Below the pieces are notes generated by a model. The model was not told the origin of the DNA. It saw only the letters and a list, made by a program, of their open reading frames with translations, and made no database searches. A DNA stretch of 64,000 bases from a virus (Duplodnaviria > Caudoviricetes). Where the stretch lies: the IMG/VR virus record IMGVR_UViG_3300022660_000043; one strand, given 5' to 3'. Shown here piece after piece: positions 14,486 to 33,675 of the stretch; position 1 is the first letter of the stretch, and each line of letters opens with the position of its first letter. The position numbers were made by a program, and so were the translations under genes.

Positions 14486-14555
14486 CTATATATATTATAC
14501 TACATTTCACCAAAAAAGTAAATAGTTAAACTGCACAGACTTTAACTTTTTTTCT
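14486..14555 (-). promoter_or_regulatory. class-1 (early, SigA-type) promoter repeat, copy 1
   Basis: TTTACT-N17-TATAAT plus conserved upstream AAAGTCTGTG block. Confidence 0.85.
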
Positions 14556-14559
14556 ATAT

Positions 14560-14597
14560 AAAATGACCGGACTCCCTTTTTGAAATCCGGTCATTTT
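14560..14597 (-). terminator. intrinsic terminator hairpin
   Basis: AAAATGACCGG...CCGGTCATTTT immediately after the stop at 14602. Confidence 0.75.
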
Positions 14598-14601
14598 AAT
14601 A

Positions 14602-15105
14602 TTAGTTATAGTGTGTCTGAATATAGCTCTTCAAAACTAGGTCAAAGACGGGTTCGTCGTCATATAGGATCTGTTGAAGTTCTTCCTCAAGTTCATCCTC
14701 GTCAGTAGGAATGTCAGCTTCAGTTTCCCAGTAATCGAGGGGATCAATAAATGACCTAAAGTGTTTCTGAAACCACGAAAGTACTTCGAAGTTTTCATCT
14801 CCGGTAGTACAGTAGATAACGTCATCATTGTCACAGTCTTCATGAATCGTATCTATCAAGTTCTCAAATTCAATATCGAAATCGGAAGGACTGGTAATTG
14901 CATCTTGGAGAACCTCAAGCTCAGGTTTAGAGAGGTCACACTTTATGAGGTACAACTGACTTACATCATCTGGCCCATATCCGAGGAAGTCAGGAAGGTC
15001 TTTCTCCTTTCAGTGCTTGACAGCATTTTTAAGAGATCTGTCGATATGATATACTGAGTAACTTTCACCTCGATCATATCTATAGTATGTAAGATAAATT
15101 TTCAT
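14602..15105 (-). pseudogene. acidic hypothetical protein interrupted by an in-frame TGA at 15010-15012
   Basis: MKIYLTYY...AVKH*KEKDLPDFLGYGPDDVSQLYLIKCDL... reads in frame into ORF 14602-14955; RBS and TGCTAAATTAT upstream. Confidence 0.7.
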
Positions 15106-15160
15106 TATGGGAGTCTCCTTATTAAATTTATTAAGTCTGTATAATTTAGCAATAAAAAAG

Positions 15161-15193
15161 GACGAAGCCGGAGTTAAGCACGCCGGCTTCGTT
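15161..15193 (-). terminator. intrinsic terminator
   Basis: ACGAAGCCGG...CCGGCTTCGT followed by a T-tract on the minus strand. Confidence 0.85.
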
Positions 15194-15224
15194 ATTACTA
15201 CAATCACAATATTCAAAACAAACA

Positions 15225-15512
15225 AAATAAACTTAAGTTATAGCTACTTCCATTTCATAAGCTCTTGCTCCTCCAAAGCTACTAAAGGTCGGTGGGAATG
15301 TACGGGAACACTAGTTAATATAAATCTAATCTCCTACGTTGCTACTTCATTTTCTTAGCCCCTCCAATGGCACAACAAGTAAGGGTTGATCGGCTCACAT
15401 CAAACATAAGTCTAATAATAATCAATCTCTTAAGTTGCTACGTCATTTTCATAGTCCCTCCTCAAGACCCAAAGAAATTAAACGGTTATGTGGTACCGAA
15501 AAACATGTCAGT
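15225..15512 (-). repeat. three-unit degenerate tandem array, period 96-98 nt
   Basis: GCTAC cores at 15243, 15341, 15437; minus-strand consensus GGAGG..CTAWGAAAATGAMGTAGCAAC. Confidence 0.85.
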
Positions 15513-15786
15513 CTACATACTCATATACTCATCATCTTCGTCTTCCCAATCGTCGTCGGGCAAATCCATATCCCGGCGGCAGAGGAGAAGACCTTCGGGA
15601 ACATCCTCTTCTGTCTCCCTCTCGAACTCTTCTTTTGTTACCTCAGTAATTTCGTACTGACAATCTGCATCAAAGTGAAGAGCGAGGGCGAGGTGAGCGG
15701 GGGGTTTCGTTTTCAAGGGTTGAGGAAACATAGAACTCCCACTCATCATCCTCGTCTTTGATGTTAGTTATCTTAAAGTATTTCAT
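15513..15786 (-). pseudogene. acidic hypothetical protein frameshifted at a C6 tract (15699-15704)
   Basis: MKYFKITNIKDEDDEWEFYVSSTLENETP joins AHLALALHFDAD... only if one C is removed; GAGG RBS before ATG at 15786. Confidence 0.7.
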
Positions 15787-16232
15787 TTTGGATTACCTCA
15801 CTGAATAATAATGTCGTCACCTGCTTCGGAAGCAAGAACTTCTACATAGCTCCAGTCTTCGTCAGTCGCCTTGAGAGTAAGAGTAGCAGAAGGGTCAGCC
15901 TTAGACAAAAGCTCTATAAGCTCTCTCACATTCCTCGCGTCTCCAATATATTTATACTGCATCACTAACCTCCTTGATGATCACATTCGTAAAGTCAGTC
16001 AAACTTCCGACCTCGACGGTTTTGGTTTCGAAGGGAACAATCCCTCTCTTCTTGAGAGCTTTGAGATACAGCTCTCTGCGTTCTTCCGGCGTAAGCTCAG
16101 GCTTAGACATCTCCTACCTCCTTGAGGCTCTCAACCTCTTCCCAAAGATCGGCATAGAGTTCAACATCGAATTGGGGGTTGTTGTAGAAATCAGCGTAAG
16201 TCATTTTGAAATCCTCCGTTTCGTTCGCTTGA

Positions 16233-16303
16233 TTACATTTATATTATACCATAAAACGAAGGATTTGTAAATTGACAAAACAACCAAAGTTTAATTATTT
16301 TTC
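16233..16303 (-). promoter_or_regulatory. class-1 promoter repeat, copy 2
   Basis: TTTACA-N17-TATAAT, upstream AAACTTTGGTTGTTTTGTCAA. Confidence 0.88.
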
Positions 16304-17098
16304 CGTGTAAATCTTACGAAGGCTCCTCCTCAGTAACCAGATCAGCTTCCTGAAGAGTAATATGAACTTCAACTAAAGTATCATCCGGCGCAGTGTAGTC
16401 GATCTCGTAAAACTCCTCTGCCTCAGAACCATAAACTCTGAGGGACTCAGAGATCAGATCCTTGTCCTCTGCATCCTCAGTGTTCTCATAGATCACAGAG
16501 ATCCACTCATCTTTGCTCTTGGTCAAAGCCTTGAGAGCTTGCTCCCGGTTAATGTAAACTCCATCACTTCCGGCGGAAGCATCAACCGGCATCCCGTCTC
16601 CACCCATAGCTCTGGCCCAACAGATTATATATACCTTTTCCATATTAGTTCTCCTTTTCTCCGATGATATAAAAGTCTCCCTCTCCGAGTTTACCGGAAA
16701 GTTTATTAGAAGCGATCCTTACTGCCTGAGGTCCAGACTCTGCCGTGACAGTAATCTGATATTCCTTACCTCCAGCTTTTCGAAAGCCTATCAACCAAGG
16801 TTTGTATTCCATTTAATCCTCCTCAATAGTAGAATTGATCATAAGCTTTCCGCAATGCGGACAGAACTTAGAATCCGTACTCTGGCCGAAGCAATCGTTC
16901 AGAGCCGAACGACCACAGTTCGAACAAGTGTAGTACAGCCCATCTTCGTGGAATATCCAGAACGCTTCATTTTCGTCCACAGACCGCGTTTCTTCCTTAG
17001 GCAGTAAAGTATCAGGGCCCACGGCTTCGTCTCGTTCTTGGGCGTTTTTGGTAGGCTGTGGCTTAAGCCACAAATCAAGTTCTTTTAACTTTCTGAAT

Positions 17099-17311
17099 TC
17101 AGGCATTTTCAACCTCCTGCAAATTAGCTTCGTTCCACCAGCCGGAAAAGCATTCTACTTTGTATTGGGGTTCTCCTCGATAAACTCTACGGTCTGTTAC
17201 CCTGAGTCCGGGACCACGCGTAGAGTAGACGGGTGTACCACCAAAGGAAGAACTGAACATTTCTCCAAATCGGATATGAACTTTTTGACCTTTCTTAAAC
17301 TTGAAGTCCAT
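17099..17311 (-). CDS. small SH3/KOW-like protein (MDFKFKKGQKVHI...)
   Basis: GGAGG RBS; KFKKGxxV...WW pattern; track ORF 17099-17470 is over-extended. Confidence 0.65.
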   Translation of the reverse strand: MDFKFKKGQKVHIRFGEMFSSSFGGTPVYSTRGPGLRVTDRRVYRGEPQYKVECFSGWWNEANLQEVENA

Positions 17312-17312
17312 A

Positions 17313-17489
17313 TTAACCTCCGTGCATTTTAGCGATCTGGGCAGGGGAAGCAAGGACGAGTCTATCCTCTTCCCACCATCTATTACCCTTGAGTCTGTAG
17401 TAGGTTCCTTGTCGAGCGGTGATCTTAAAGAGCTGTCTATTTGCGGTGTGGGTAATCCATACCCAGTCACCTTTCTTAAACTTAGGCAT
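17313..17489 (-). CDS. small SH3/KOW-like protein (MPKFKKGDWVWI..., 58 aa), paralog of 17099-17311
   Basis: Manual translation; GGAGG RBS; first gene after class-1 promoter copy 3. Confidence 0.7.
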   Translation of the reverse strand: MPKFKKGDWVWITHTANRQLFKITARQGTYYRLKGNRWWEEDRLVLASPAQIAKMHGG

Positions 17490-17513
17490 TTTCAGTCCTC
17501 CAATCTGTGTCGC

Positions 17514-17595
17514 TTACATTTATATTATACTATATTTGCAAGCGATTGTAAACTGACAAAGTACACGAACTTTTATTATTTTTCCGTGTACTTTG
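17514..17595 (-). promoter_or_regulatory. class-1 promoter repeat, copy 3, with stem-loop
   Basis: TTTACA-N17-TATAAT; inverted repeat CAAAGTACACG/CGTGTACTTTG. Confidence 0.88.
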
Positions 17596-18532
17596 CCAGT
17601 CTAAGCACATCAGTTGTAGGCAGTGAGCCAAGCGCAGATCCTTTTCTTCATATCCCTCTCCTGCTCTCTTGCTGCTTCCTTAGAATCGAAAGCCCACAGG
17701 AAAGTTACGCAGTCAGTGTGGAAGGTATCCACATTCGCCCACTTCTTCTGAACAAAGTCTCTGAGCTCATCCCAAAGTTCTTCATTCTGAGAAACAGCGT
17801 ACAGAGTATCCTGCATATTCTGTGGCCACTCGATCTGCCAACCAAGGTATTCGTTGTGTACTACCATCTTAAGCCTCCTCGTCAGTATAGAAACAACTTG
17901 CATCAGAATCGACTTGAATATCGAAAAAAGTTCCGCCGTTTGCAATGCAGTCATCAATCATACGACTAACTTCCTGCAAGAATTCCTCTTTCGTACCATA
18001 GCACATACCAGAGCCGTTGTCATTAAGCGTCTCAATAGTAAAAGTAAACTCCTCTTCAGGTTCTGCAGGAGCTTCGTATCTTCCGCTGAACACAGACTCA
18101 GGATAAATGGCTTCCTCACCTTCAAGGTAGTAGTGAGGTTTGTTGTCATAGGAAGGAGCAATTCCCGCGATAGTCGCGACTGTACCTCCCTTATCTGCGA
18201 GACCACAAGTAGGGTTCTTAAAAGAAACCTTAAACATTACCTGATCTCCTACTTCGTACTTATGAATAATGTTTCTCATTATGCTACCTCCACATTAGTT
18301 CCAAGACTAGGACCTGCAATCCAAATCATATCAATTTGACCAAGCTTGAGAGCATACTTAAGTTCGTCAAGCATAAAGCCATCAACTACCTGAAAGCTTT
18401 TATCTTCACGATACTTAGCAGCCTTTCTATCTCTAAAATAAAGATTACCATCTGTTCTTTTAGAGAGTCTAGTTACATTTCTCGTAGTTACATTTGTGTA
18501 AGTAATCATAATTATAACCTCCGTAGTTCCGT

Positions 18533-18615
18533 TTACATATATATTATACCACAAAATGAAATATTTGTAAATAGGTAAAGCACACAGACTTTAACTTTTT
18601 TTCTGTGTGCTTTAC
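18533..18615 (-). promoter_or_regulatory. class-1 promoter repeat, copy 4, with stem-loop
   Basis: TTTACA-N17-TATAAT; inverted repeat GTAAAGCACACAGA/TCTGTGTGCTTTAC. Confidence 0.88.
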
Positions 18616-20311
18616 ATAAGTATTATTAAATTCGCTGACGAACAGTAATAATCTTGAAAGTCTTACCCATATCTATGGCTCTGAAGATACGGGCATCTCG
18701 GTCAGCTTCCTCAAGCCAGTCATATCTCTTTGCCTTCCTCTTATTACATTCGAAGACTGAAGCTCCAGACTTTCCCTCTCCACAGTAGAAGTACTCGAGA
18801 TCAGGTCTGGTGTCGAGAGTCATCTGAATTACATACTTGGTTACCATCATAAGTCCTCCTTGCTCAGTACCACTGAGACCACATAGCATATTTGAAATCA
18901 GAATTTTTCGGATACTCTCCGGTATACTCCTTATAAAGCTCAGACATTTTGGAAATGAGTTCCTGATTAAGAACTCCAGCGGGCATATTGAGTTCAAAGA
19001 ACTCGTTGTTGTCTCCGAGGTTTCCACCATCGACATACTTGTCCACCTGAATGAGTCTGGCGAACTCCCCACACATGCCATCGTAGATCAGGAGAAGCTT
19101 TCCCTCTCGGTCACTGGTATGGTAGTTATATTCGTCAAGCTCCGGATACTTTTTCTCCAGAGCGTGACATTTCGCAAAACTCTTCAAAGGTTTCTCAAGC
19201 TCCAAGGTGAGACCGGTAAGTACTCTGCACTCTACACTCATCTCAGGTCCTCCCGCAATTAGACCACACCACTTCATTGGTGTCATCATCGTCTTCCGGC
19301 ATAAAGGTTACCTCCACGCACTTGTAGAGTTTGTGGTCGAGGAAGCTGTGGGCAGCACGGATAGCTTCCTCATCAGTCTTCCACGCAGACACTGGTTGAA
19401 GATTGTCTTTGGTTTCCCCGGCAAACAGAATGTAATCAAACTTCTCAGTCTTCATCTTCTACCTCCTCAAAAAGTTCATTGGCTTTTGCCATCTCGGTTA
19501 CTTCATCTTCCGACATCCACTTGAGACACATCAGAACTACGTCTCTGGGATTGAGGATACTCTCGTCGATCATCTCAAGTATCTTGTTTGTGGTTTCGCG
19601 AGAGGGTTTAAGGCCGGCCCTCCAGTGCTTAGGTCTCGTAGTCATCTTTATTCCTCCTCATCTTCTTCATCAAAATCGATCAGGTCTTCAAGATCTTCCT
19701 TACAGGTTACAGGAATAGGGGTTTCACAAGTACCCATTGAGTAATCGTATCTCCAGTCTTCTACATCAGGAAGACCATCTTCGTAGATAGCAGTAAGGAT
19801 ATGGATAGCGACATTGAAAGAGTCATCATCTATCTTATCCTTTGCAAACTGAATAAGAGTATCTTCATCTGTGAGGTCGTCGATATTCTCTCTTGCCCAC
19901 TCAAGAAATTCTTCAAATTCCATACTCTCAAATTGTTCTCTTTTCATTTTCGGCATCATAGTTTTTTCCTCCGTTGTTCTTATTGAGGGCTCAGTTAAAC
20001 ACCAAGCCCCATAGCTTTCAGAATTACGTTATAACAATATGTACAAACATCAAGCTTCGTTCTTTTCCTCAGAAGATTTCGTTTGAACTCAGGAAGCTTC
20101 TTTTTGTTGTAGAAGGCCGGGGTAATCAACTCAAAAATGTTCTGAACGAACTGGTCTCTCGTTACTGTAGGGTCTTCAAACCAAGCATTTATTTTTTGGT
20201 TGCTCTCAAACAGCTCTTTCGAATAGCATCCGTTCTCTCTCGTAAAATCCATAGTAGTCGTCATTTTTTTAATCCTCTCTTTTAATTTTATCAGGGCACT
20301 TATTCTTTAAC

Positions 20312-20407
20312 TTACATTTATATTATAACATAAATCGCCAAAAAAGTAAACTGACAAAATAGCCAGAGTTTAACAAATTTTTTGTGCAGTCTGTTAAACT
20401 CTGGCTA
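20312..20407 (-). promoter_or_regulatory. class-1 promoter repeat, copy 5, with stem-loop
   Basis: TTTACT-N17-TATAAT; inverted repeat TAGCCAGAGTTTAACA/TGTTAAACTCTGGCTA. Confidence 0.88.
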
Positions 20408-20418
20408 TTAGTATTTAA

Positions 20419-21720
20419 TTAGAAATCAGCTTCGAGCTTGTCAAATCTGAAATCCTTAAAGATCGGGAAGCGAAGACTAATGCCGCCGTCTGCATTTGTC
20501 GTTTCTTCGAAGTACTGAATCTCAGCAATCTTACCAACGAAGTCGGAAGGCTCAAGCCAGATAAGATCTCTAAGCTTATCGCTGAAGCCGGAACCAACTT
20601 TCACGATGTTACCGTTCTTGTACCTTACGTGAATGGCACCGAGAGTACCGGAGAGTCTGCCGGAACCTTCTTCGAAGCCGACGATCTCAAGGTCAAGAGT
20701 GTTCATCTTCTTCACCTTCATCAGAGACCACGTTCTGGAGAACTCATAGACAGCATCACAGATGTTGATCATCACTCCCTCTTCCTGATTGGCGATAGCT
20801 TCGTCAAGGAATTCAAGGATCTTGGAAGTGTCAGTTCCCACGTAGAGAACAGGCAGCAACTCAAAGTAGGTGGGAGCTTTTGCAGCATAGAAGAACAAAC
20901 CCTCAAGTAGCTCTCTTCTCTGTTTCCAAGTGTGAGTGCACTTCTGGTTCTTCCACTCATCGATGTACATAGCATCGAAGACTTTCATCTTGAGTCCATG
21001 CTTCTCGCCATCGGAACGAGTGATCTTCATTGCTCTCTTGTAGGCTTCCTTACTCGGAATTCCAGAGTCATCAAGGATAGTGATCTCTCCGTCAAGAACG
21101 GTTCCGTCAGGGAAAGTTTCCAGCATCTCCCTCTCCAGATCTACCAGACCCTCGTATCTCTGACCAGCTCTGGTGAAAAATGAAACCTGATCATTTTCGC
21201 GAATAGCAATGATACGACCGCCATCAATCTTGGTAGTGAGGGCAAAGGTCTTACCCTCTACCTTACTGGGCTTCTCAAAGTATTTCTGCGCGAGCTGAAC
21301 CGAGAATGTAGGAATGAGTCCCGGCATTGCAGCGTTAATCGACTTGGCATCGACTCCGATACTCAGATCCTTACAGATAAGCTTCTCAAGAAGAGCAGCA
21401 AGCTCCATGTTATAGGCAGCAACCTGACCGAGAGTTTCCTGACACATCTTGATCGCAGTATCAGTACCGGTATTATGTTTCTCCAACCAGTAGAAGAGAT
21501 CGAAGATAGAATCTGCCGGATACGGGCGAACTCCCTCGGGATGTTTACTCAACTTCTTGGTGCTTAGGCCGTAGACCGCGAAAGGATCGAAGACGATCTT
21601 GAGGTACTTCTGAATGACCTCGTCGTCCTTATACTTCTGCAGAACCTCCTGCTTAAACTTCTTAGAGTTACTTGAGGAGATCTCCTTTACGAATTCATTA
21701 AAATGCTGAAGTGTTCTCAT
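20419..21720 (-). CDS. lig: ATP-dependent DNA ligase
   Basis: KIDGGR (motif I), LDGEI, EGVMI, MKVKK, KVGSGF, SLRFPIF. Confidence 0.95.
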   Translation of the reverse strand: MRTLQHFNEFVKEISSSNSKKFKQEVLQKYKDDEVIQKYLKIVFDPFAVYGLSTKKLSKHPEGVRPYPADSIFDLFYWLEKHNTGTDTAIKMCQETLGQVAAYNMELAALLEKLICKDLSIGVDAKSINAAMPGLIPTFSVQLAQKYFEKPSKVEGKTFALTTKIDGGRIIAIRENDQVSFFTRAGQRYEGLVDLEREMLETFPDGTVLDGEITILDDSGIPSKEAYKRAMKITRSDGEKHGLKMKVFDAMYIDEWKNQKCTHTWKQRRELLEGLFFYAAKAPTYFELLPVLYVGTDTSKILEFLDEAIANQEEGVMINICDAVYEFSRTWSLMKVKKMNTLDLEIVGFEEGSGRLSGTLGAIHVRYKNGNIVKVGSGFSDKLRDLIWLEPSDFVGKIAEIQYFEETTNADGGISLRFPIFKDFRFDKLEADF

Positions 21721-21920
21721 ACTGCCTCCTTAGATGCGAAAATTAGCGTCACATTCGAACTCTCCAAGAGCTTTATACAACTGCTGAATAAAAGCAATCT
21801 TAGAGTTTAGATTGTTATTAACGATTTTCTTTACCGGACGAACAACTTCCTGATAGAAAGGACACTCGTCTGTTACCAGACACTTGTCACATACACACTT
21901 TCCAGACATATCTCTCCTCC

Positions 21921-22139
21921 TTACTTAATTCTCTTAAATGGATACTGCTCGTACACAAACTCGTTCAGATACTTTCCGACAGACGGAGCAATAATAAGTT
22001 CTTCATATACTTCTTTAGGCACATCATGGAAAGTATAGATTCTTCCATCCTTGTACTCGACGCGAAGACATTCTCCAGCAGTACCAAATTCAAGTCTCTT
22101 AATGTGAGAAGAATTAGGGGCATCAAAAACTTTAATCAT
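21921..22139 (-). CDS. KTSC-domain protein
   Basis: SSHI...L.VEYKDG.IY.F.DVP.EVY.ELI.APSVGKYLN. Confidence 0.85.
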   Translation of the reverse strand: MIKVFDAPNSSHIKRLEFGTAGECLRVEYKDGRIYTFHDVPKEVYEELIIAPSVGKYLNEFVYEQYPFKRIK

Positions 22140-22163
22140 ATTATGTATCCTCCATGCTCTTGT

Positions 22164-22257
22164 TTACATTTATATTATACCATATTTTTCATAATTTGTA
22201 AATAGGTAAAGCAGCCAGAATTTTCCTGATTTAACAAGATTTTTCTGGCTGCTTTAC
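22164..22257 (-). promoter_or_regulatory. class-1 promoter repeat, copy 6, with stem-loop
   Basis: TTTACA-N17-TATAAT; inverted repeat GTAAAGCAGCCAGAA/TTCTGGCTGCTTTAC. Confidence 0.88.
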
Positions 22258-22260
22258 ACA

Positions 22261-22920: not shown

Positions 22921-23310
22921 GCCTGAGCTCCCTTCAGCATAAATGCTTTTGCCACAAGGCTATTCTCATTCAGAACCACGGTCTCCTCTTCCTGAGAGGG
23001 ACGGAAGAAGGCGTCAACCCTCTCGCCTTTGTCGTTAGTAATAACGATAGTCATCTTTTCTTTCCTCCTTTAACTGTGCTTGATTTTGAAATAGCTTACT
23101 GCCGGACCATTGACGAAAGAGAACTGGACCTTGTTCTTCATCGCCTCCAGGCAATCTTCTTCGCTGAACCCGTCTACCAACTCCCAACGGTCATCATCCT
23201 GATTAAACCAGTAAAGGTTTCCGTCAGTACGGTTGTAGTAGTGATTCAGGGTCTTCGAATTAACGGCTTCGATAGTTTTCATTATTCTGTCCTCCAATAG
23301 GTTCGCTTGA

Positions 23311-23380
23311 TTACATTATTATTATAACATATTCCAAGCCATTTGTAAACTGACAAAACTACCAGACTTTTACTATTTTT
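23311..23380 (-). promoter_or_regulatory. class-1 promoter repeat, copy 7
   Basis: TTTACA-N17-TATAAT; separate terminator hairpin at 23388-23417. Confidence 0.88.
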
Positions 23381-23452
23381 CTTATACAAAATGACCCGAC
23401 CGAAATCGGGTCATTTTCAAAAGTCCAATATCGAAATCAGACTGTTTTCAGA

Positions 23453-24274: not shown

Positions 24275-24321
24275 AGTTGGACCTCCAAAATTTTATTTGT
24301 CAGAACTTAACTTCTTTGTTC

Positions 24322-24392
24322 TTACATACTAATTATAACATATTTTGACAAAAAAAGATACTGACAAAACAGCCAAAGTTTAATTATTTTTC
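24322..24392 (-). promoter_or_regulatory. class-1 promoter repeat, copy 8 (degenerate -35)
   Basis: TATCTT-N17-TATAAT with the full upstream AAACTTTGG..TTTTGTCAG block. Confidence 0.75.
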
Positions 24393-24403
24393 TATGCAGA
24401 ATA

Positions 24404-24488
24404 TAAAAAGGGAGCACAGCCCAACGACCAACTGTGCTCCAAAAAGAAAGGAGGTGAAAAATGTATGCAAGAACTACAACGCCCGCAC
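24404..24488 (-). ncRNA. candidate small RNA carrying the anti-SD sequence UCACCUCCUUUCU
   Basis: Class-2 promoter 24489-24501, no ORF, terminator GGAGCACAG/CTGTGCTCC-CTTTTT. Confidence 0.65.
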
Positions 24489-24527
24489 ATTATATTATAC
24501 AATGTCGAAAACCAAAATTTAACTATT

Positions 24528-25262: not shown

Positions 25263-25389
25263 AAAATCCTCCAAATAAATATTCTATTTTATTATACGAT
25301 ATAAGTAACTACGAAAAAACACCCCATCCGAAAATAGGGTGTTTTGAATTTTACATATTTGAAAACCGGTGGTTTTCAAATTATATGTA

Positions 25390-26274: not shown

Positions 26275-26305
26275 TATGTATCACCTTGTCCTTTCTTTCA
26301 TTGTC

Positions 26306-26620
26306 TCAGTCACAGAAACTGTAACTTACCTTATCAGTAAATGCCGGGAACAGCTGCTGCTTCTTCTGTCTTGCCACTGCCTCAACCTCAAGCAAGCCCT
26401 TACGAACTTTGAGAACCTGAGCAGCGGTCAGTCTGATCATCTTCATTGCCTTACCATCTGAAGTCAGTCGCTCCCAAATGTAATAGTACTGTCTATGACC
26501 GGCGGAGGAACATCTCACTCTCTTACCTTCTACCTTCTTGAAGGCAGGTGTAACCTTTGCTACACCGACATGAGTGCAGGTCCACTTACCAGACTTCATT
26601 CCCATATACTTACTTTTCAT
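26306..26620 (-). CDS. basic hypothetical protein
   Basis: K/R-rich ORF with GAAAGGA RBS, first gene after promoter copy 9. Confidence 0.75.
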   Translation of the reverse strand: MKSKYMGMKSGKWTCTHVGVAKVTPAFKKVEGKRVRCSSAGHRQYYYIWERLTSDGKAMKMIRLTAAQVLKVRKGLLEVEAVARQKKQQLFPAFTDKVSYSFCD

Positions 26621-26648
26621 TTTTGTATGTACCAGTCCTTTCTTAATT

Positions 26649-26725
26649 GTACATAATATTATATCACGTTTTGTTATGTTTGTAAACTGACAAATCTGCC
26701 AAAATTTAGATAAATTTGTCAGTTT
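26649..26725 (-). promoter_or_regulatory. class-1 promoter repeat, copy 9, with stem-loop
   Basis: TTTACA-N17-TATAAT; inverted repeat AAACTGACAAAT/ATTTGTCAGTTT. Confidence 0.85.
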
Positions 26726-27907
26726 TTCTTATGCAGAATTTCGTTAAAGATCGCGCCGGCAAAATGATCATCTCCCTCTACCTTGACAACTGTCTCAACC
26801 CACACATGCAAAGCAGCAAGAGGTTTGCCGTACCAGTTAGAACCCTTGAAATCGAGCAAAGCATGAAGACTTGGGATCTTATCCCTCGCAATAAGGATTG
26901 CCTCATCTGGGTCAGCTCCGGCCCAGAGCAAGAGAATACCTTCAAGCTGTTCTCCCTCTACCCCAATGCCCTGAACCAGAACCCGGTACTCACAGGGTTC
27001 GAGCTCAAAGTCCTCAAGGTCATTCACACATTCCATGTTCTTGTCGTCCATCCCTCTCCTCCATCCTTAAGATACCAGTCGCCGTCTTCGCCGTGGAAGA
27101 TCTCACCTTCAGATTCCAGAACAGCGTAGACTGCTTCGCAAGCTGCGTCGAAGTTATCACAGTCTTCTTGAAATGCCTTACGCTCCTGATCATCTGAGTC
27201 AGAGTTCCAGAAGATATACTGGTTCCACTCTACCTCAAGCTCATGGTACTGCTCATCAAGACCGACATCCAGCCAGTATCTTCGCTTCGAGTCTTTGTGG
27301 TAAAGACAAACAGACCAGCAACCTTTTGTTTTGTTTTTTACAACAGTCAATGGTGTAAACATCAGTCATCCTCCCCTACTTGAATATGAAGTCGAATGCT
27401 TTCCATCATCATATCCTGCTGGTCTTCGTCCCACCATTGATTAGTGACCTCAAGCTCATCAGAGTTGATCACGTCACACCACCATTCTCCAAGCTTACGC
27501 GGAACATTGTCCAGAACTTCTTCTACCTGCTTCATAGTCTCACAACTATCAAGAGCTTCCCAGACATCATTTACATGATTAAACGTTTTCATAGCTTACC
27601 TCCAGTCGTTTACTCATCATCTATATTATAACATATTTTCAAGGATTTGTAAACTGACAATCTGCACGAAGTTTTAGGTGGCTTCCTGTTAGTCCTTTAC
27701 TGGTTCTATAACACAGTTCAGCACTGATGACCTAGATAAGAGCATGGACCTCCAAAGCTCTGCTTTCTCAAAATCCATTACCCAAGCCTCTTCTTTCCGT
27801 GTATCCCACTTGATAGCTCCTTCCTCATCGAGACCACTGAGATAATAAATCTCGGGTGCGATCTGACCTTTGCGATTAGCTAAACGAAAGCTGAGAATGT
27901 ATTTCAT
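26719..27907 (-). other. small hypothetical genes 26719-27051, 27024-27362, 27362-27592, 27689-27907
   Basis: RBS-led acidic ORFs. Confidence 0.75.
27621..27675 (-). promoter_or_regulatory. class-1 promoter repeat, copy 10
   Basis: TTGTCAGTTTACA-N17-TATAAT. Confidence 0.85.
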
Positions 27908-27917
27908 GTCCCTCTCC

Positions 27918-28241
27918 TTACTCTACATTATTTTCAACCAAAGCTCTGGATACATAGATCCTGTCGATGTATCCAGCAATTCGGTCGACCTCCTCATTCC
28001 AATAAATCTTGGCTCTTTCTCTTGCATCTTCGGGGGTGCTGTAGATGTCTTGAGTCTCTACTCCCTTTACCAGACCACAGCACTCACACTTGTACTGATA
28101 AGAAGAGTGACCGGGATAGCCATGACCTCCAGGTCTTCCGAGATCGCACTCTTCACGATGAGGATGCTCCCCGCAGATAGGGCAAGCTTTTGCAGAAATG
28201 AACTGAACTTTCGGCGTTATATTTCTGTAGTAGGTGCTCAT
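27918..28241 (-). CDS. Lar-like (restriction alleviation) Zn-ribbon protein
   Basis: KACPICGEHP...CECCG...A...WN pattern. Confidence 0.55.
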   Translation of the reverse strand: MSTYYRNITPKVQFISAKACPICGEHPHREECDLGRPGGHGYPGHSSYQYKCECCGLVKGVETQDIYSTPEDARERAKIYWNEEVDRIAGYIDRIYVSRALVENNVE

Positions 28242-28243
28242 GA

Positions 28244-28978
28244 TTAGTCCTCCTTAATTTTGAGAATAAAGTTATTGATTTCGACTCTGCCGCGGTTCTC
28301 ACCGAAGAGCCTAAGAAGAGCTTCTACCAGACAGTCGAGCTGCTGGATAGAAGAAATGTCTACGCCCTCCTTACCCACAGTGAGAGGGGCAAACTCAAGG
28401 TACTCCAAGTCCTCGCTGTAACGATCGTTGAAGTGGTCAATAACTTCAGCAAGAATGAAGTTGTCGTAGTCCAATTTGGAATACTCATTAACCAGATCTC
28501 TGAGATCGTCACAGAGTCTGTCGAAGTCTCTTACCAACTGAGTCCATACTCTAAGGTCGTGGATGAAGTCCTTTACTGTATTACCATAGTAGCTGCGGGT
28601 ATCGTCCTTGAAGTCCTTATAGGTCTGATAATCCCAGATCCAGTCAGGAAGCACATGATCATTGTTATCTCGGTTGTAGAGAACGAGGTAACCACCCTGA
28701 CGACCGTTAAAGTGGACTCTGTACACCGGATGCTCTGCTACGAAGTCATCAATCTTTTCCTGAATAAGGAACTGAAGATCTCCAATGTCTTGTTCATCAA
28801 AAAGGAAACGAGCTGCAGTAGTCCAGTCACCTTCGAGCTTCAGGTTGTAGAGCTTTACGTTATGTGCAATCGATCTTCCACCATTCCAAGAATGGCAGGT
28901 GGAATAAGTAAAGTGATCATGCAGGAATTCCCACATAGACTTGGGGTTAGAAATGTCAACACCAGTTTTATAGAACAT
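28244..28978 (-). CDS. hypothetical protein (244 aa)
   Basis: GAGGAGG RBS; FNGRQGGYLVL motif. Confidence 0.8.
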   Translation of the reverse strand: MFYKTGVDISNPKSMWEFLHDHFTYSTCHSWNGGRSIAHNVKLYNLKLEGDWTTAARFLFDEQDIGDLQFLIQEKIDDFVAEHPVYRVHFNGRQGGYLVLYNRDNNDHVLPDWIWDYQTYKDFKDDTRSYYGNTVKDFIHDLRVWTQLVRDFDRLCDDLRDLVNEYSKLDYDNFILAEVIDHFNDRYSEDLEYLEFAPLTVGKEGVDISSIQQLDCLVEALLRLFGENRGRVEINNFILKIKED

Positions 28979-29110
28979 CTTTTTTCCTCCTCAAATTTTA
29001 TCGGTTCTCTGAATATACAACGGAATAAAGCCAAACAGGAAAATTCCCTTGTAATCATAACGATCTCTGAAACGATTGTATGTATGCCACTTCTTGTAAA
29101 CGATCATTTC

Positions 29111-29332
29111 TTATTCCTCCTCGTTGTTTGCAGAATTAGGCCAGTAAAGATTTTTGAGTTCATCATAGTTTTCAATCCAGCTGAGAAGAACATCTTTTGC
29201 CAGACTCTTCGTAATGCCTGCAAGCTCAGCAAGATAAGGGGAAGCTCCCCACATATTACATATACCCGACTGTCTGATTGCTTCGAGCATGATGTAGTAT
29301 TCTTTCCACTTATGATTGATGGGATATTCCAT
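29111..29332 (-). CDS. DUF5049-like small protein
   Basis: LEAIRQSGICNMWGA...WI.NY.EL. Confidence 0.55.
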   Translation of the reverse strand: MEYPINHKWKEYYIMLEAIRQSGICNMWGASPYLAELAGITKSLAKDVLLSWIENYDELKNLYWPNSANNEEE

Positions 29333-29354
29333 AAGAAGTCCTCCGTTCTTTAAC

Positions 29355-29427
29355 TTACATATATATTATATCATAAAACGGCTTTGTTGTAAACTGACAA
29401 AATAACCAAAGTTTAGATAATTTTTTA
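29355..29427 (-). promoter_or_regulatory. class-1 promoter repeat, copy 11
   Basis: TTTACA-N17-TATAAT; terminator hairpin at 29441-29472. Confidence 0.88.
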
Positions 29428-29493
29428 TCTATTTTATAGTAAAAGCACCCAAGATCCCTCTCAGGTGCTTTTATCATGTACTTTACTTATTTA

Positions 29494-30609
29494 TTAGTCG
29501 TCGATCGATACGAGGTCACACTCGTACAGCACATCAACACACTCAGTGTAGCCCTCTTCAGGATCAAGCTCATCCTCAGGCTCCATCTCAATACACTGCT
29601 CCACTCTGAGAGTCAAGAAGTCGCCGCGCTCGGGATGAAAGCCATAGATAGTATCCATAGTTTCACCGGCGAACTCAAGGCAATCTTCTACTGTCCGGAT
29701 TTGGCGAGCATACTCAAGAGCAGCCTTCGGAACCTCAAATTCTTCCAGAAAGATTTCGGTGTCGGTGGGGTCACCGTCCTTGTTGTAGCCGAGAGCACAA
29801 ACAACGTAAATGTAATTTTCCATAGTATATTCCTCCGTAGTTTCATTTGATTACATATATATTATATCACAACCGGTAAGATTTGTAAATCGACAAAGTG
29901 CACAGACTTTTATTATTTTTCTATGCACTTAGCCGGCACCCACACAGCAGTCGAGCTTGAGCTTCGTCTTCAGAGCCTGAAAACAAGTGATCTGCCCAAT
30001 GTCTCCGAGTCTCTCCCCTTCGATAAAGAGTTCAAGTTCTTCGAACTCATAGGGCTGGATATACTCAGACTCCATCTTCTTCTGCACTCTGTAGAGCTTG
30101 TAACCCTTAAGCTCGGGATACTTGAAAATCTGATCCTTTTCCCAAGGAATTGCTTTGCCGTGAGCATCCCAATAAGATTTTACATCAACTCTCTTGGTGT
30201 ATCCCATCTGAACAAGCTCTCTGGAAATCTCAGTAACCTTCATCTTAAACTCCTTTCAGGGTTTCAAGCATGTCTGCAAATCCAGAACACTCTTCTGCAT
30301 TCTCAAGGTGCATCTGAGCCTGCTCTGCATCCTTAGCTCCCTTAGCCCAAAGTCTCTCATTACTTGCTGCGCCTCTGTAATCAGAGATCAGTTCATCAAG
30401 CCACAGTTTCTGGTTTTCAGTCATAGTTAATGCTCCTCCTTAACTTCACAAATTTCTGCAGGGAAAGAACGTCCATCGCCATACCAGCAATCAGTGTCCG
30501 GCTTATAGAGCCAGTCCTTATCGCAGATATAAAAAGGCGGATAGAGAGCGTTTTTAGGGACAATCTTCATGTCACCATGAAAGGCTTTATAGCCTTCAAC
30601 CTTAATCAT
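29494..30609 (-). other. small hypothetical genes 29494-29823, 29929-30243, 30427-30609
   Basis: RBS-led ORFs. Confidence 0.75.
29851..29930 (-). promoter_or_regulatory. class-1 promoter repeat, copy 12, short stem
   Basis: TTTACA-N17-TATAAT; AAGTGCA/TGCACTT. Confidence 0.88.
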
Positions 30610-30633
30610 AAGTCTTATCCTCCGTGCTCTTGA

Positions 30634-30716
30634 TTACAATATTATTATATCACATTTTGATTGATTTGTAAACTGACAAAGCTACCAGACTTTTACAATC
30701 TTTTCTGGTAGCTTTG
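30634..30716 (-). promoter_or_regulatory. class-1 promoter repeat, copy 13, with stem-loop
   Basis: TTTACA-N17-TATAAT; CAAAGCTACCAGA/TCTGGTAGCTTTG. Confidence 0.88.
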
Positions 30717-31029
30717 TATGTTTTCATATTTCACATTTTGCTGCGAGCTCTTTCACAATCTCAAGAACCTGAGCTTCATGGTAAATAGAACCGTAGTCCC
30801 TCTCCCACTCTCCGGTACGTCTATCTACCCGGAAGATTCCCCAGCTCTCTCCGAGACTGATCTCTACTCTGGGTCCGTATTGGTCTTCGCTTATAGTAGC
30901 TTGAAAGATATCATAGTTTCCGTATTTCTTCTGCTGGTTAATCTTTCTGGTCATGAAAGCTTTGTTCTTTCCTCTGACAATAGAAAGCATTTCATCCTGA
31001 GTTAAACGTTTCATATCCAACCTCCAAAC

Positions 31030-31698
31030 TTATTTCAAAAGCTCTACTACATCTTTAGGGTTTCGAGCATCGTAGCAGTTACGACACTCTACACATCTCC
31101 TCTTACCACAGTTGATAGCAGGATTAGTCTTGTCTCTCGTCACAGTGAAAGTAATAACTCTTCTGTGATACTGTTTGATGTTCTCAACAAAGGACTCGTG
31201 AAGAACATGGTCTATGTAAGGACTGGAGAGGATCAAGGTTACGTTATCAGGAAATCTCTTTCCACTTTCGAAATACTTTCTGATAATACCGTACTGTTTA
31301 GTAAACAGTGCGAATTTCGTATGTCTTGCTGCTCTTGCAATTCTTATGTAGTTGAGAAGCTGTGTTTCATTAGTCAGATCTCCGAAAGATTCGAATCTCG
31401 CAATCGCAGTGTTCAGAAAGAACTTCGCAATCTCCTTAAGCTCGGAGGTAGTAAGTTCCCTCTCTGCAAGGATGTGAGTGTTGTTCGTGAGAGCACCCTC
31501 AAGTCTCGGATACATTGCCATTGTCCTGTCTACATAGCAGTGAGTACAAATGCAATCAGGATTATCAGAGCAGGCTCTTTGCATGCACTGGGGGTTAAGT
31601 TTCTTGTTCGTGCTAAGACTGGGGATCATGGTCATCTTACCCTGATGCTCAGAGAGAGTGATATGTTCTTGATCGTTGATTTGAATTTTGAAGCTCAT
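31030..31698 (-). CDS. GP88-like Cys-rich phage protein
   Basis: C..RA....CIC.HCY, ARFESFGD, FALFTK, C..RRC.EC.NCY. Confidence 0.6.
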   Translation of the reverse strand: MSFKIQINDQEHITLSEHQGKMTMIPSLSTNKKLNPQCMQRACSDNPDCICTHCYVDRTMAMYPRLEGALTNNTHILAERELTTSELKEIAKFFLNTAIARFESFGDLTNETQLLNYIRIARAARHTKFALFTKQYGIIRKYFESGKRFPDNVTLILSSPYIDHVLHESFVENIKQYHRRVITFTVTRDKTNPAINCGKRRCVECRNCYDARNPKDVVELLK

Positions 31699-31722
31699 GG
31701 TCTTTACCTCTCCACTTGTTCG

Positions 31723-31784
31723 TTACAATAATATTATAACATATTTTGCCGAAAAAGTAAATAGGTAAACTAACCAGAGTTTAC
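31723..31784 (-). promoter_or_regulatory. class-1 promoter repeat, copy 14
   Basis: TTTACT-N17-TATAAT; upstream AAACTCTGG. Confidence 0.85.
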
Positions 31785-32450
31785 TTACTTTTCTTGTGCA
31801 TCTTGATAAATGCCTGTGAACATATCTCTCACGTTATTTGCCTTGAAGACACCAACGTAGTTTCCGAGAGTATCAATAGTCCATCTAATTCCACCGTACT
31901 CCGCAGCATTCTTTGCTTTCGCAATCATGTTGTCGCTGGACATATTAACTCTCGCTTTCTGAGACCAGAGATCTACAAACTCTGCGAGTCTATCAGGTGT
32001 AACCTGAATCAATTCTCCGGATACAGCGAAAGGCAGGTTTCCTGAAACGAGAACAGGAGCTTCTACAGAACTGAGACTGAGACCACCAAAACCGTGAGTC
32101 TTATAGAAAGAGGATACAGGAAGACCGGGGAGAGTTGAGATCTTATCAAAGTTCATCGCGATAGTTTTGATAGTGGATCTATACTTGAGGTATTCCTTAA
32201 TACCGTATGTAAACTTCATCATCTGCGGCGGAGTAAGATCGCCCATACCGATAATATGATAAAGATCACACTGAACGATCTTGGTCTGCAGTGATTCCTC
32301 GGCTCTACAGAAATTCTGAAGTTCCAGGGCTTCCTGTATAGTCAGCTTCTTGAGATCGTCTGTTGTCTTGATACCTCCAAGTAAAAGCTCGCACTTATCA
32401 ATGCGAACCTTAAGCAGAGTCATAAATCTTTCGAAAGTTTCCTTATTCAT
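31785..32450 (-). CDS. hypothetical protein (221 aa)
   Basis: AGGAGG RBS. Confidence 0.8.
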   Translation of the reverse strand: MNKETFERFMTLLKVRIDKCELLLGGIKTTDDLKKLTIQEALELQNFCRAEESLQTKIVQCDLYHIIGMGDLTPPQMMKFTYGIKEYLKYRSTIKTIAMNFDKISTLPGLPVSSFYKTHGFGGLSLSSVEAPVLVSGNLPFAVSGELIQVTPDRLAEFVDLWSQKARVNMSSDNMIAKAKNAAEYGGIRWTIDTLGNYVGVFKANNVRDMFTGIYQDAQEK

Positions 32451-32704
32451 AGGTCCTCCTTACTGAACCAGTTCAATATCAAGTCTCTCAAGAGCAAGCT
32501 TGAAGGTGAGACAATCTGCGGTGCCGAGAGGGAGTTCATAGCAAGAACACTTGTAGTCCCCCATAACCCGGATATTAACCGGACCTCCCCAGAGACAGAT
32601 GAGTCTCACGAAGTTTCTGAGATCCTCACAATCTTCCGGTATCCAGAGCCTAGGGCCATAGCAACCCTTAATCTCAGGAATAAATTCTATCTTACGAGTC
32701 TGCT

Positions 32705-33025
32705 TCATGTTCTTACCTCCTTGATCAAGTTCCAGCCCACAATATCACAGTAGTAAAGTCGGCACTTTCCGTTTCTCTCAATGTGCACACAGTCGCTTAC
32801 GGAGAGGGAATGTCCAGTGAAATCCTCAGGTCTTCGCATATTAAATATATAGAAGAGAACTTCGAGGGCTTCGAGATCAGATTTGTCATCCATAGTTTCA
32901 GACTCAAGATCATAGACAATCTCGTAGTCCTCTATGTTAAACTTATCTTCCTTGTATCCACGGAAAGCATAATCGCAACCCGCAATATCCTTGATCTGCA
33001 AAATACGAAAACGCGTCATTTTCAA
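32705..33025 (-). CDS. YodL-like protein
   Basis: Y.F......DY..VY...LE.LF.IFN..RPEDFTGHSLSVSD...YY.D..G. Confidence 0.85.
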   Translation of the reverse strand: MKMTRFRILQIKDIAGCDYAFRGYKEDKFNIEDYEIVYDLESETMDDKSDLEALEVLFYIFNMRRPEDFTGHSLSVSDCVHIERNGKCRLYYCDIVGWNLIKEVRT

Positions 33026-33215
33026 TCCTCCATATAATTCGGTTTGTATTTCGGCTTTCTCTTTCGACGGTCATCAAAGACCTGAGCTCTGTTCTTCAAC
33101 CGGCTGAATTTCCGGTCCTGAGAAGGAACACTTGAGATGTCAATTCGAATCTGAATCACATTCTCAGGTTTCCTCTCTCGTACTTCATAGGTTCTGCGCT
33201 TCATAAGGTCTTACC

Positions 33216-33467
33216 TCACGCCTTTCCGTTCGCCATGTCCATAACGGTCATGAGAACTTCATTAGAAGGATTAGGATCAAGCTCCATCCACTCATCTGCA
33301 TAGACGTGAGTACTTCCAAAAGAGAACGCGTGGTTCACATCGATGTACTGAACCAGAGTTTTGTTTCCTCTGTCCTCAAGAACAACGTATCTCTCTTCAC
33401 CAGTCTCTCTGGGGCCAAGCCATTCAGGCTTTGCTTTGATAATGTCTCCAACGTTAAACTTACTCAT
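33216..33467 (-). CDS. small SH3-like protein (MSKFNVGDII...)
   Basis: GGAGG RBS; KFxVGD motif. Confidence 0.7.
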   Translation of the reverse strand: MSKFNVGDIIKAKPEWLGPRETGEERYVVLEDRGNKTLVQYIDVNHAFSFGSTHVYADEWMELDPNPSNEVLMTVMDMANGKA

Positions 33468-33490
33468 TTCTAAAACCTCCAAGTTTCAAT

Positions 33491-33560
33491 CACAATATTA
33501 TTATAACATGTTTGTCAGATTTTGTAAACCGACAAAATATACAAAGTTTAAAAAATTTTC
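33491..33560 (-). promoter_or_regulatory. class-1 promoter repeat, copy 15
   Basis: TTTGTCGGTTTACA-N17-TATAAT. Confidence 0.88.
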
Positions 33561-33574: not shown

Positions 33575-33675
33575 AAAAAACGACGACCTGTCCAGGAGGA
33601 ATAGACAAGCCGCCGCCAAAAAGGGAGGACTGCTGCTTTCGCAGCTAACTATGAAAAACCGAGGTTTCTAACCTC
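33575..33675 (-). ncRNA. candidate structured small RNA with anti-SD/anti-AUG tracts
   Basis: Class-2 promoter 33676-33689; hairpins GAGGTT/AACCTC and CTGC-GAAA-GCAG; terminator with TTCCTCCT loop and T6. Confidence 0.6.

Follow-up and report, generated by a model that had tools for sequence, protein, structure and literature searches.

Promoter-early stem-loop (PeSL) motifs have been described in T4-like phages (Arbiol et al. 2010, PMC2839356; Comeau et al. 2014, PMC4122927). Their promoter takes the form TTTACW-N17-TAYWAT in T4/PST (PMC4122927), and in one subclass the stem-loop lies in the A/T-rich stretch located upstream of the -35 (PMC2839356; PMC4122927). The array described here, known from sequence alone, resembles the PeSLs in consisting of repeated composites of ~80-100 bp, in which an upstream stop codon, an A/T-rich block, a sigma-70-type promoter and a stem-loop with G-T pairs are followed by a Shine-Dalgarno sequence and the start codon of an ORFan; its -35 and -10 match the T4/PST form. 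Both are also concentrated in plastic regions; PeSLs are associated with indels and replacements, and the array may be as well. The array differs in that its 15 copies occupy one contiguous, strand-pure block of 19 kb, whereas PeSLs are found across several hyperplastic regions, and in that its stem-loop wraps a conserved A-rich loop of 13-24 nt, whereas RB49 has a short G-run/loop/C-run. Further differences are an additional conserved TTTGTCAG, a TGTAA start that is likewise conserved, an extended -10 of the Gram-positive TRTG type, and a phage that belongs to a very distant, uncultured lineage. The element is read as a PeSL-type composite of terminator and early promoter. The composite design is already known from T4-like phages, and the array would be a clean new example rather than a new kind of element.

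The host-takeover module of SPO1 is transcribed from numerous strong sigma-A promoters and has strong ribosome sites, and the array likewise appears to group small early genes under a series of sigma-A promoters. The two resemble each other in their dense small early genes, mostly of unknown function and apparently aimed at host processes (PMC10531801). They differ in that the SPO1 module is part of the terminal redundancy in a Herelleviridae genome, whereas the array is internal and accompanied by T4-type head genes; no genes common to the SPO1 module and the array were detected. The analogy with both systems, drawn in an earlier note on this DNA, is apt. A T4-type capsid protein (PF07068, Gp23; 99.9 bits) and a T4 portal (PF07230; 104 bits) are present in the genome. 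There was no nucleotide match to INPHARED phages, and the phage would be a distant uncultured T4-like relative, its T4-likeness known from these two head genes only. The style of promoters and ribosome sites points to a Gram-positive (Bacillota) host.

Fifteen predicted promoter units on one strand

The genome is that of an uncultured phage (221,361 bp), with the array internal, at 135.7-154.7 kb of a linear record in which no end repeats were detected. Coordinates below refer to the window, i.e. the whole stretch of 64,000 nucleotides analysed. A repeat search recovered a family of ~80-bp units, and nhmmer with a 77-nt unit profile gave exactly 15 matches in the whole genome (E 1e-10 to 2.5e-16), the next-best match having E = 0.44. 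The earlier note had proposed 15 copies on the minus strand; all matches lie within 8 nt of the starts it gave, and its consensus agrees with the one derived here. The units are as follows.

14487..33560, minus strand: whole array, 15 putative promoter-terminator units with ~55 small genes between them
33486..33560, minus strand: element 1, -35 from 33528; heads 5 genes including the YodL-like one
31719..31793, minus strand: element 2, -35 at 31761, TTTACT
30630..30703, minus strand: element 3, -35 at 30672
29847..29921, minus strand: element 4, -35 at 29889
29351..29424, minus strand: element 5, -35 at 29393
27613..27683, minus strand: element 6, -35 at 27653
26653..26717, minus strand: element 7, -35 at 26686
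24319..24392, minus strand: element 8, degenerate -35 TATCTT at 24360; extended -10 and all else kept
23307..23381, minus strand: element 9, -35 at 23349
22160..22232, minus strand: element 10, -35 at 22202; heads the DNA ligase cassette
20308..20381, minus strand: element 11, -35 at 20350, TTTACT
18529..18603, minus strand: element 12, -35 at 18571
17510..17584, minus strand: element 13, -35 at 17552
16228..16303, minus strand: element 14, -35 at 16271
14487..14554, minus strand: element 15, -35 at 14522; diverged start region

The same units stood out in searches for promoters as such. A strict -35/N16-18/-10 regular expression found 14 copies on the minus strand of the array region and no other match there, and TTTACW-N17-TATAAT occurred genome-wide 14 times forward and once in reverse, against 0.3 in shuffles. 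In a generic promoter scan the array copies were the 14 top matches, with the remaining matches at chance level; apart from the array copies, the genome has no full -35/-10 promoter. Two further over-represented motifs are dispersed genome-wide, the distribution that later promoter classes should show. The phage genome yielded no sigma-70 region 2 gene.

In the upstream part of the unit, A/T tracts lie at approximately -64, -54 and -42, spaced by about a helical turn, and a few of the G/C bases between these three tracts are conserved. This part is followed in order by TTTGTCAG, TTTACA, a 17-nt spacer ending TRTG-n, TATAAT and ATAWATGTAA. Downstream of the start region come a leader of 15-25 nt, GGAGG and an operon of 1-6 small genes, the GGAGG and start codon lying 13-39 nt past the start region. 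That copies head short gene groups, as previously claimed, held throughout: each is followed by GGAGG and ATG and by 1-6 minus-strand ORFs. TTTAC(A/T)-N17-TATAAT is present in 14/15 copies and the TG of the extended -10 in 13/15. Consensus and fixed spacing are kept over 71 copies from ten lineages, among which TRTG, the Gram-positive extended -10, occurs in 54 and TG in 66. A and T tracts are conserved from -31 to -1 relative to the -35 hexamer and reach -66, farther upstream than the canonical UP element, which spans -40 to -60. Nor does an UP element explain the conserved upstream G/C bases (C/G at ~-53, G at ~-49 and GTC-G at -40 to -36).

The sequence strongly supports the proposal that these are early promoters, with four RNA polymerase contact elements, ORFan operons and strong ribosome sites. 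In T4 early promoters, UP, -35, TGn and -10 elements occur together (PMC2613000), and the array shares with the strong ones the presence of all four recognition elements in one promoter; it departs from them in A/T tracts that extend to ~-66 and in the specific G/C bases conserved between these. Most or nearly all array products are ORFans. Besides a KTSC-domain match and weak zinc-ribbon matches, the following were recognized.

32705..33019, minus strand: YodL-like protein, 104 aa, cassette 1 (PF14191, E = 1.4e-18)
31030..31698, minus strand: GP88-like protein, 222 aa (PF17338)
20419..21720, minus strand: ATP-dependent DNA ligase, 433 aa

YodL perturbs cell shape via MreB (PMC6965359), and the predicted gene content fits an early region.

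Hairpins at the upstream edge

The earlier note had placed a hairpin at the upstream edge of most copies, and one was found in 12/15. In seven of the 15 it is built from the element itself, as a co-varying integrated hairpin wrapping the A-rich block, and in five others a classic GC hairpin with a T-run stands just upstream. The copies with their -35 at 31761, 27653 and 16271 showed no convincing upstream hairpin.

30676..30717, minus strand: integrated hairpin, 14 bp, 14-nt A-rich loop
29896..29930, minus strand: integrated hairpin, 11 bp, loop 13; its 5' arm overlaps the upstream gene's stop codon
26684..26725, minus strand: integrated hairpin, 5' arm an inverted copy of the TTTGTCAG-TTT block
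22206..22257, minus strand: integrated hairpin, 15 bp, loop 22
20358..20409, minus strand: integrated hairpin, 17 bp, loop 18 (ungapped count)
18575..18615, minus strand: integrated hairpin, 14 bp, loop 13
17550..17602, minus strand: integrated hairpin, up to 20 bp, loop 13
33579..33617, minus strand: conventional GC hairpin and T-run, just upstream of element 1
29440..29473, minus strand: conventional hairpin with A and T runs on its flanks, upstream of element 5; ends approximate
24411..24440, minus strand: conventional GC hairpin and T-run, upstream of element 8
23388..23417, minus strand: conventional GC hairpin and T-run, upstream of element 9
14560..14598, minus strand: conventional GC hairpin and T-run, upstream of element 15

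Helices of 11 bp or more form in 26/71 copies, compared with 9% when the arms are swapped between copies. RNAalifold independently found a 12-bp helix in which six pairs are changed on both sides; the observed covariation score was reached in 0/500 shuffles, and slid controls collapsed. Folding energy was better for the sense than for the antisense strand (-22.3 vs -17.6 kcal/mol), and the hairpins start at, or a few nt from, the upstream stop codon. The five adjacent hairpins have the form of canonical intrinsic terminators, defined by a GC-rich stem, a loop of 3-8 nt and an unbroken T-run. The integrated hairpins, with loops of 13-24 nt, the tail TTTGTCAGTTTAC and an interrupted T-run, fall outside that definition. 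None of them was called by a simple terminator scan, the sole call within an element (20366-20351) being a different, 5-pair stem. Judged from sequence, their loop size and interrupted T-run are atypical for efficient intrinsic terminators; the hairpin is nevertheless part of the unit, and most likely a terminator or attenuator of the preceding operon.

In combination, the repeats are probably (at a probability of about 0.75) the phage's full complement of early promoters of the host sigma-A/sigma-70 type, every one joined to the site at which transcription of the preceding unit stops. Host RNA polymerase would start at or near the G/A of TGTAA immediately upon infection, with the A/T block serving as an UP-like or curved-DNA enhancer. 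RNA from the upstream operon would fold into a hairpin right behind the stop codon of that operon. In seven copies the 3' arm of this hairpin would be the element's own -24 to -4 segment and its loop the A-rich block, with the T-rich tail running into the -35; in five, the ordinary GC hairpin and T-run just upstream would do the stopping. Read-through would in this way be stopped or attenuated, with every cassette expressed from a promoter of its own.

Alternative readings and related lineages

The integrated hairpins could instead process or stabilize RNA, either as RNase III-type sites or as protective 3' ends, so that a long early transcript would be cut into cassette-sized mRNAs. Their long, near-perfect stems (12-20 bp), large loops and poor T-run are indeed unlike typical intrinsic terminators, and the preference for wobble pairs on the sense strand implies a structure that acts in RNA. 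However, ordinary terminators stand at the same position in five copies, which argues that the job there is termination, PeSL stem-loops have been shown to terminate (PMC2839356), and the hairpins yielded neither an RNase III-type internal loop pattern nor an Rfam family match; we consider a processing role unlikely. A candidate operator is likewise improbable, although the conserved non-A/T bases upstream of the -35 (AAAcTytG and TTTGTCAG), perhaps with the TTTACA/TGTAA inverted pair, keep their fixed spacing in 71 copies, hairpin or not. Through such a site an early shut-off factor of the phage, or else a regulator of the host, would switch the 15 promoters in concert; the Spo0A boxes on phi29-family early promoters offer a precedent of host control (PMC2731898). 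In relatives the same core promoter also occurs with a second, different upstream block, a hint at exchangeable upstream regulatory modules. Against this, a search of the array proteins gave no DNA-binding candidate, the hairpin arm and T-rich tail explain part of the conservation, and TTTGTCAG shares only TGTC-R with the 0A box. As a Spo0A site proper the block was rejected: relative to the literature consensus TGTCGAA most copies read TGTCAGT, matching at 4/7 positions (5 if position 5 is taken as any purine), and only a few have TGTCGAT or TGTCAAT. Far less probable still is an integron-like array, with the hairpins as attC-type sites for a site-specific recombinase. Arm sequences do vary while the structure is kept, and the copy at 20350 has a GTTTAAC ... 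GTTAAAC pair resembling inverse-core/core sites, but this resemblance is confined to the inner stem part of that one copy, every cassette has its own promoter and half of the copies are without such a hairpin. Tyrosine and serine recombinase genes (PF00589, PF00239) were not found in the genome; their absence effectively refutes an attC array, and the cassettes are not promoterless.

The same strand-pure arrays occur in nine related metagenomic lineages (in relative G001 both ends of the record fall inside the array), the relatives compared being only ~65-87% identical. They bear on the suggestion of the earlier note that the element is a homology or recombination handle for shuffling accessory cassettes. 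Over the ten lineages, adjacency was kept across an element in 68/263 informative comparisons (26%) and inside cassettes in 553/992 (56%), so that junctions at elements were broken about twice as often; these comparisons are non-independent, and 44% of those within cassettes were broken too. Many breakpoints fall elsewhere, and single-gene indels are common inside cassettes. The element junctions are moreover ~10x longer than others and therefore tolerate random breaks anyway. Whole cassettes have been inserted, deleted or replaced from element to element, e.g. the ligase cassette and the 8-9 cassette relative to G003, and element 7 (26653..26717), an ~80-bp solo unit, lies between two genes of G000 and is missing between their orthologues in G003. 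Several long inter-lineage alignments end either at +60 to +70 relative to an element or at ~-30 to -45, and PeSLs provide a precedent. Homogenisation proved weak: the loop block has a weak genome-specific signature (p = 0.003), but the spacer, start region and arms are without within-genome homogenisation. Identity between copies is only 64-82% over 75-120 bp, and their exact tracts have a median length of 12 nt and reach 22 nt at most. In a test of co-travel between half-elements and flanking genes the effects were small, and one direction only fits crossover inside the element. A handle role is thus plausible but unproven, the sequence comparisons being suggestive. That the units serve first of all as recombination handles or as mobile regulatory cassettes seems doubtful, if somewhat less so than the readings above; copy exchange, possibly via mini-circles as in phi1/RB49, would then excise, insert and reshuffle cassettes, and recombination would maintain the extended conservation. 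With the units as composite early promoters and terminators, the dispersed ~80-bp similarity and the long non-coding junctions would probably favour gene shuffling there as a by-product. All copies sit in the mosaic region.

The repeat family and its promoter anatomy

The repeat family of the array is real and sharply defined, and a chance origin was rejected. Repeat searches of the window aligned, for each seed family, 11–14 copies located at 14.4–33.6 kb, and a strict regular expression (TT[TG]AC[AT]-N16-18-TA[TA]AAT) matched 14 minus-strand copies in the array and a single unrelated site in the remainder of the 64-kb window. The 15th copy (24360; copies are named by the start of their -35 hexamer) carries TATCTT in place of this hexamer, with the rest of the unit intact. 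The window corresponds to the reverse strand of bases 105,234–169,233 of the IMG/VR record (221,361 bp, estimated 95% complete), and searching this whole genome (G000) with an nhmmer profile of the unit (77 columns) returned exactly 15 matches, all on the same strand, with E-values of 1e-10 to 2.5e-16 and a next-best E-value of 0.44. The 15 copy starts reported in the earlier note all lie within 8 nt of the profile matches, and its minus-strand consensus agrees with the one derived here. TTTACW-N17-TATAAT occurs 14 times in forward and once in reverse orientation in the genome, as compared to 0.3 times in shuffled sequence. Likewise, the 14 best matches of a generic promoter scan were units, the remaining matches being at chance level, and the whole-genome motif count revealed no TTGACA-type promoters. 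In IMG/VR the core pattern was found at 50 loci on approximately 23 contigs, representing about eight distinct lineages. Nine relative lineages were taken for comparison with G000 (ten in all), and the arrays of all nine are strand-pure with 5–12 units each.

Consensus of the unit (minus strand, positions counted from the first base of the -35 hexamer)
-31 to -28: A run
-21 to -17: AAA(C/G)T
-14: conserved G, followed by a variable 'arm'
-8 to -1: TTTGTCAG (or TTTACCTA)
Downstream, in order: TTTACA, AAT, a 17-nt spacer ending in T-R-T-G-n, TATAAT, ATAWATGTAA

The start region is followed by a leader of approximately 15–25 nt and then by GGAGG and ATG. Every unit heads 1–6 tightly packed minus-strand ORFs, in line with the earlier description of most copies as heading short groups of small genes. 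The TRTG motif, present in 11 of the 15 copies in G000 and in 54/71 across the ten lineages (TG alone in 66/71), is the Gram-positive form of an extended -10 element (PMC2613000). In combination with the style of the ribosome sites, it points to a putative host among the Bacillota. Three A/T tracts, centred near -64, -54 and -42 in promoter coordinates, are spaced about one helical turn apart. UP elements are located at -40 to -60, and in strong T4 early promoters they occur together with -35, TGn and -10 elements (PMC2613000). The phased tracts could serve as a UP-like or curved-DNA enhancer, a reading that leaves the conserved G/C positions among them unexplained.

Two further motifs are over-represented in the whole genome, GCTAAATTA (29 copies vs 3.6 expected) and TGTATAATA (27 copies vs 7.7 expected). 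Both are strand-biased and dispersed through G000, and they are likely later promoter classes. As the units are the sole class resembling a full host promoter, they appear to be early promoters. No protein with a sigma-70 region 2 was found in the genome. Sequence inspection also revealed two units devoid of ORFs, both of which start with a -10-only TGTATAATATAAT motif and end with a GC terminator; they are listed here with a separate stretch that lacks a convincing ORF (elements are numbered 1–15 from 33560 downward):

24404–24510, minus strand: ORF-free unit directly upstream of element 8 (24319–24392), containing TCACCTCCTTTCT, which resembles the 16S 3'-end (anti-Shine-Dalgarno) sequence
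33575–33700, minus strand: ORF-free unit directly upstream of element 1 (33486–33560)
15105–15513: stretch of about 400 bp in the cassette after element 14 (16228–16303), with no convincing ORF in a Shine-Dalgarno-based gene call

In the downstream array parts of two related lineages, G001 (loci L062 and L063) and G002 (loci L060 and L061), a second promoter class is found. It shares a TTTACA-N17-TATAAT-ATATATGTAA core and has a different upstream block, GTGAACAAnTTGTAAACA ... AAAAGGGG; this class was not found in G000. Two units of G001 (L062, reg positions 11423 and 11909) are separated by 486 bp without an intervening ORF, the interval being either a cassette devoid of genes or a further non-coding unit.

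Upstream hairpins and the likeness to PeSL elements

Seven G000 copies (30672, 29889, 26686, 22202, 20350, 18571 and 17552) contain an integrated hairpin in which bases -24 to -4 pair with a stretch upstream of the A-rich block; the stems measure 9–20 bp and the loops 13–24 nt, with single-sequence fold z-scores of -2.1 to -6.7. Five other copies (33528, 29393, 24360, 23349 and 14522) have an ordinary hairpin and T-run just upstream, while no convincing upstream hairpin was found in 3 of the 15. The earlier claim that most copies carry a hairpin at their upstream edge is thus borne out (12/15). The arms of the integrated hairpins vary in sequence between copies with complementarity kept, and across the ten lineages helices of 11 bp or more are seen in 26/71 copies, vs 9% after swapping arms between copies. 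Covariation was assessed on 13 copies with 13–14-nt loops. RNAalifold predicted a 12-bp helix unaided in this alignment, both partners having changed in six of its pairs, and the covariation score was reached by none of 500 shuffles and collapsed in slid controls; since these copies were picked for having helices, the result establishes covariation among hairpin-bearing copies rather than the universality of the hairpin.

The sense strand folds better than the antisense strand (-22.3 vs -17.6 kcal/mol) owing to wobble pairs, which indicates that the hairpin acts in RNA from the upstream operon. Its 5' arm starts at, or a few nt from, the upstream stop codon. We take the integrated hairpins to be putative terminators or attenuators, the best argument being that ordinary terminators fill the same position in some copies. 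Still, they are atypical for terminators in their large loops and interrupted T-run. A simple terminator scan called none of them, its one in-element call (20366–20351) being a different 5-pair stem, and Rfam returned nothing above threshold and no family matching the hairpin.

This architecture closely parallels the promoter-early stem-loop elements (PeSLs), motifs that recur in the hyperplastic genome regions of T4-like phages. PeSLs combine an upstream stop codon, an A/T-rich region, a sigma-70-type promoter, a stem-loop, and a ribosome site with the start of an ORFan. Their conservation spans approximately 100 bp, their stem-loop contains G-T pairs and terminates transcription, and in one subclass it lies within the A/T-rich stretch situated upstream of the -35 hexamer (PMC2839356). 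The promoter form of the array is the same as the PeSL promoter of the T4/PST pair, TTTACW-N17-TAYWAT (PMC4122927), and the sequence-level defining features of PeSLs are present in the array. The G000 units differ from PeSLs in forming a single contiguous array and in their large conserved loop, TTTGTCAG block, TGTAA start and TRTG motif. The host-takeover module of SPO1 (PMC10531801) is a functional analogue of the array and no relative. Judged from its sequence, the array is a PeSL-type early promoter-terminator array of a new phage lineage, and the kind of element is already known. This suggests that the PeSL design extends past the Gram-negative-infecting T4-like phages where it was described. 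From sequence alone, the array maps the early regulon of this uncultured 221-kb phage as 15 transcription units. The repeat units themselves are predicted to be ready-made strong promoter/terminator parts.

Array rearrangement and the recombination-handle reading

The ten lineages with homologous arrays are material for studying module shuffling. They share a common but rearranged backbone of gene families, with shared genes approximately 65–87% identical, and in G000 and the related lineage G003 more units divide this backbone into smaller operons. Gene families 27 and 36/39 have several copies per array in the arrays of the ten lineages, and two of the three family 27 copies in G000 directly follow a unit as its first gene. 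Both ends of the G001 record (220,023 bp) lie inside its own array and the contig of another relative, G004 (135,441 bp), ends inside its array, either because the repeats break assemblies or because the physical genome end is located there.

The earlier note further proposed that the units act as recombination handles for the cassettes, to be checked by whether gene gain/loss breakpoints between related phages fall in the element. Gene adjacency is kept across a unit in 68/263 informative genome comparisons (26%), vs 553/992 (56%) inside cassettes, albeit these comparisons share ancestry and are hence not independent. As evidence against a leading part of the units in recombination, 44% of the intra-cassette comparisons are broken too, and unit-bearing junctions are about 10 times longer than others and would tolerate breaks anyway. 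Comparison with G003 revealed unit-to-unit indels or replacements, e.g. of the ligase cassette and the 8-9 cassette, and several long alignments break off near a unit, at +60 to +70 or -30 to -45 relative to it. Two orthologous genes that overlap in G003 are separated in G000 by a solo unit of about 80 bp, which is absent from G003. PeSLs are themselves associated with indels, and mini-circles have been demonstrated (PMC2839356). Against this, the G000 copies are only 64–82% identical over 75–120 bp, and their exactly matching tracts have a median length of 12 nt and reach 22 nt at most; a genome-specific signature of concerted evolution is small and confined to the loop block; and co-travel of unit halves with their own flanking genes gave small, asymmetric and partly contrary effects. 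First genes after a unit display a weak variability trend (singletons 6/15 vs 6/33). With the adjacency, indel, identity and half-unit evidence mixed in this manner, the recombination handle is plausible but unproven: the loss of adjacency at units and the cassette and solo-unit indels speak for it, the frequent breaks elsewhere and the short identical tracts against it.

An integron array was rejected as no tyrosine or serine recombinase was found in the G000 genome, and a transposon on the same grounds and because neither terminal inverted repeats nor a target duplication were obvious at the solo indel. A Spo0A-box reading was also rejected. A more far-reaching reading appears unlikely. In it the unit would not be a passive promoter but a regulatory cassette that propagates itself and can insert solo between genes, as at the 21/22 junction; it would mediate the excision and insertion of ORFan cassettes by way of circles in a T4-related lineage of jumbo phages infecting Gram-positive gut bacteria, and its conserved G/C positions would serve as an operator by which a single factor controls the entire early regulon.

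Cassette genes and the phage lineage

The products of the cassettes are nearly all ORFans, almost none being assigned a function by PHROGs or Pfam. The recognisable array products and the T4-type head genes of G000 are:

Array cassette: ATP-dependent DNA ligase, 433 aa
Array cassette: GP88-like protein
32705–33019, minus strand: YodL-like protein, 104 aa, first cassette (PF14191, E = 1.4e-18)
G000:C1:90418–91494, outside the window: T4-type major capsid protein (PF07068, 99.9 bits)
G000:C1:85500–86864, outside the window: T4-type portal (PF07230)

The YodL-like protein (family 5) is conserved across several lineages. YodL itself, a small protein, disturbs cell shape by way of MreB (PMC6965359), which fits a host-takeover role; the YodL-like protein may be MreB-directed. 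The cassettes, with about 55 candidate host-takeover genes, constitute a short list of small proteins for host-inhibition screening, one of them YodL-like. Among the 43 small ORFs at window 12644–33467, one encodes a KTSC domain (E = 1.6e-16), and weak zinc-ribbon matches were observed in one or more. The array is flanked by genes for an SNF2 helicase, a Dam methylase, NrdD and a baseplate hub.

The putative T4 kinship of the phage rests on the two head genes, which in G000 occur alongside Gram-positive-looking promoters and ribosome sites. T4-related phages of Bacillota would be unusual. Megablast of the array against the INPHARED phages gave no match; the only tblastn hit of one late protein was a gut fragment of 37% identity, the relatives that a single metagenome scan returned for the central 273-aa protein are at most 63% identical, and a search for NrdD homologues returned metagenomic proteins only. 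The pattern scan of the genome collection recovered only contigs in taxonomically inconsistent MAGs (Bacteroidales, an archaeon, Blautia, Acidiphilium and Clostridia), presumably mis-binned phage DNA, so that no host call was made from them. At window position 45285 a one-base difference separates the window (A) from the genome record (G, same strand).
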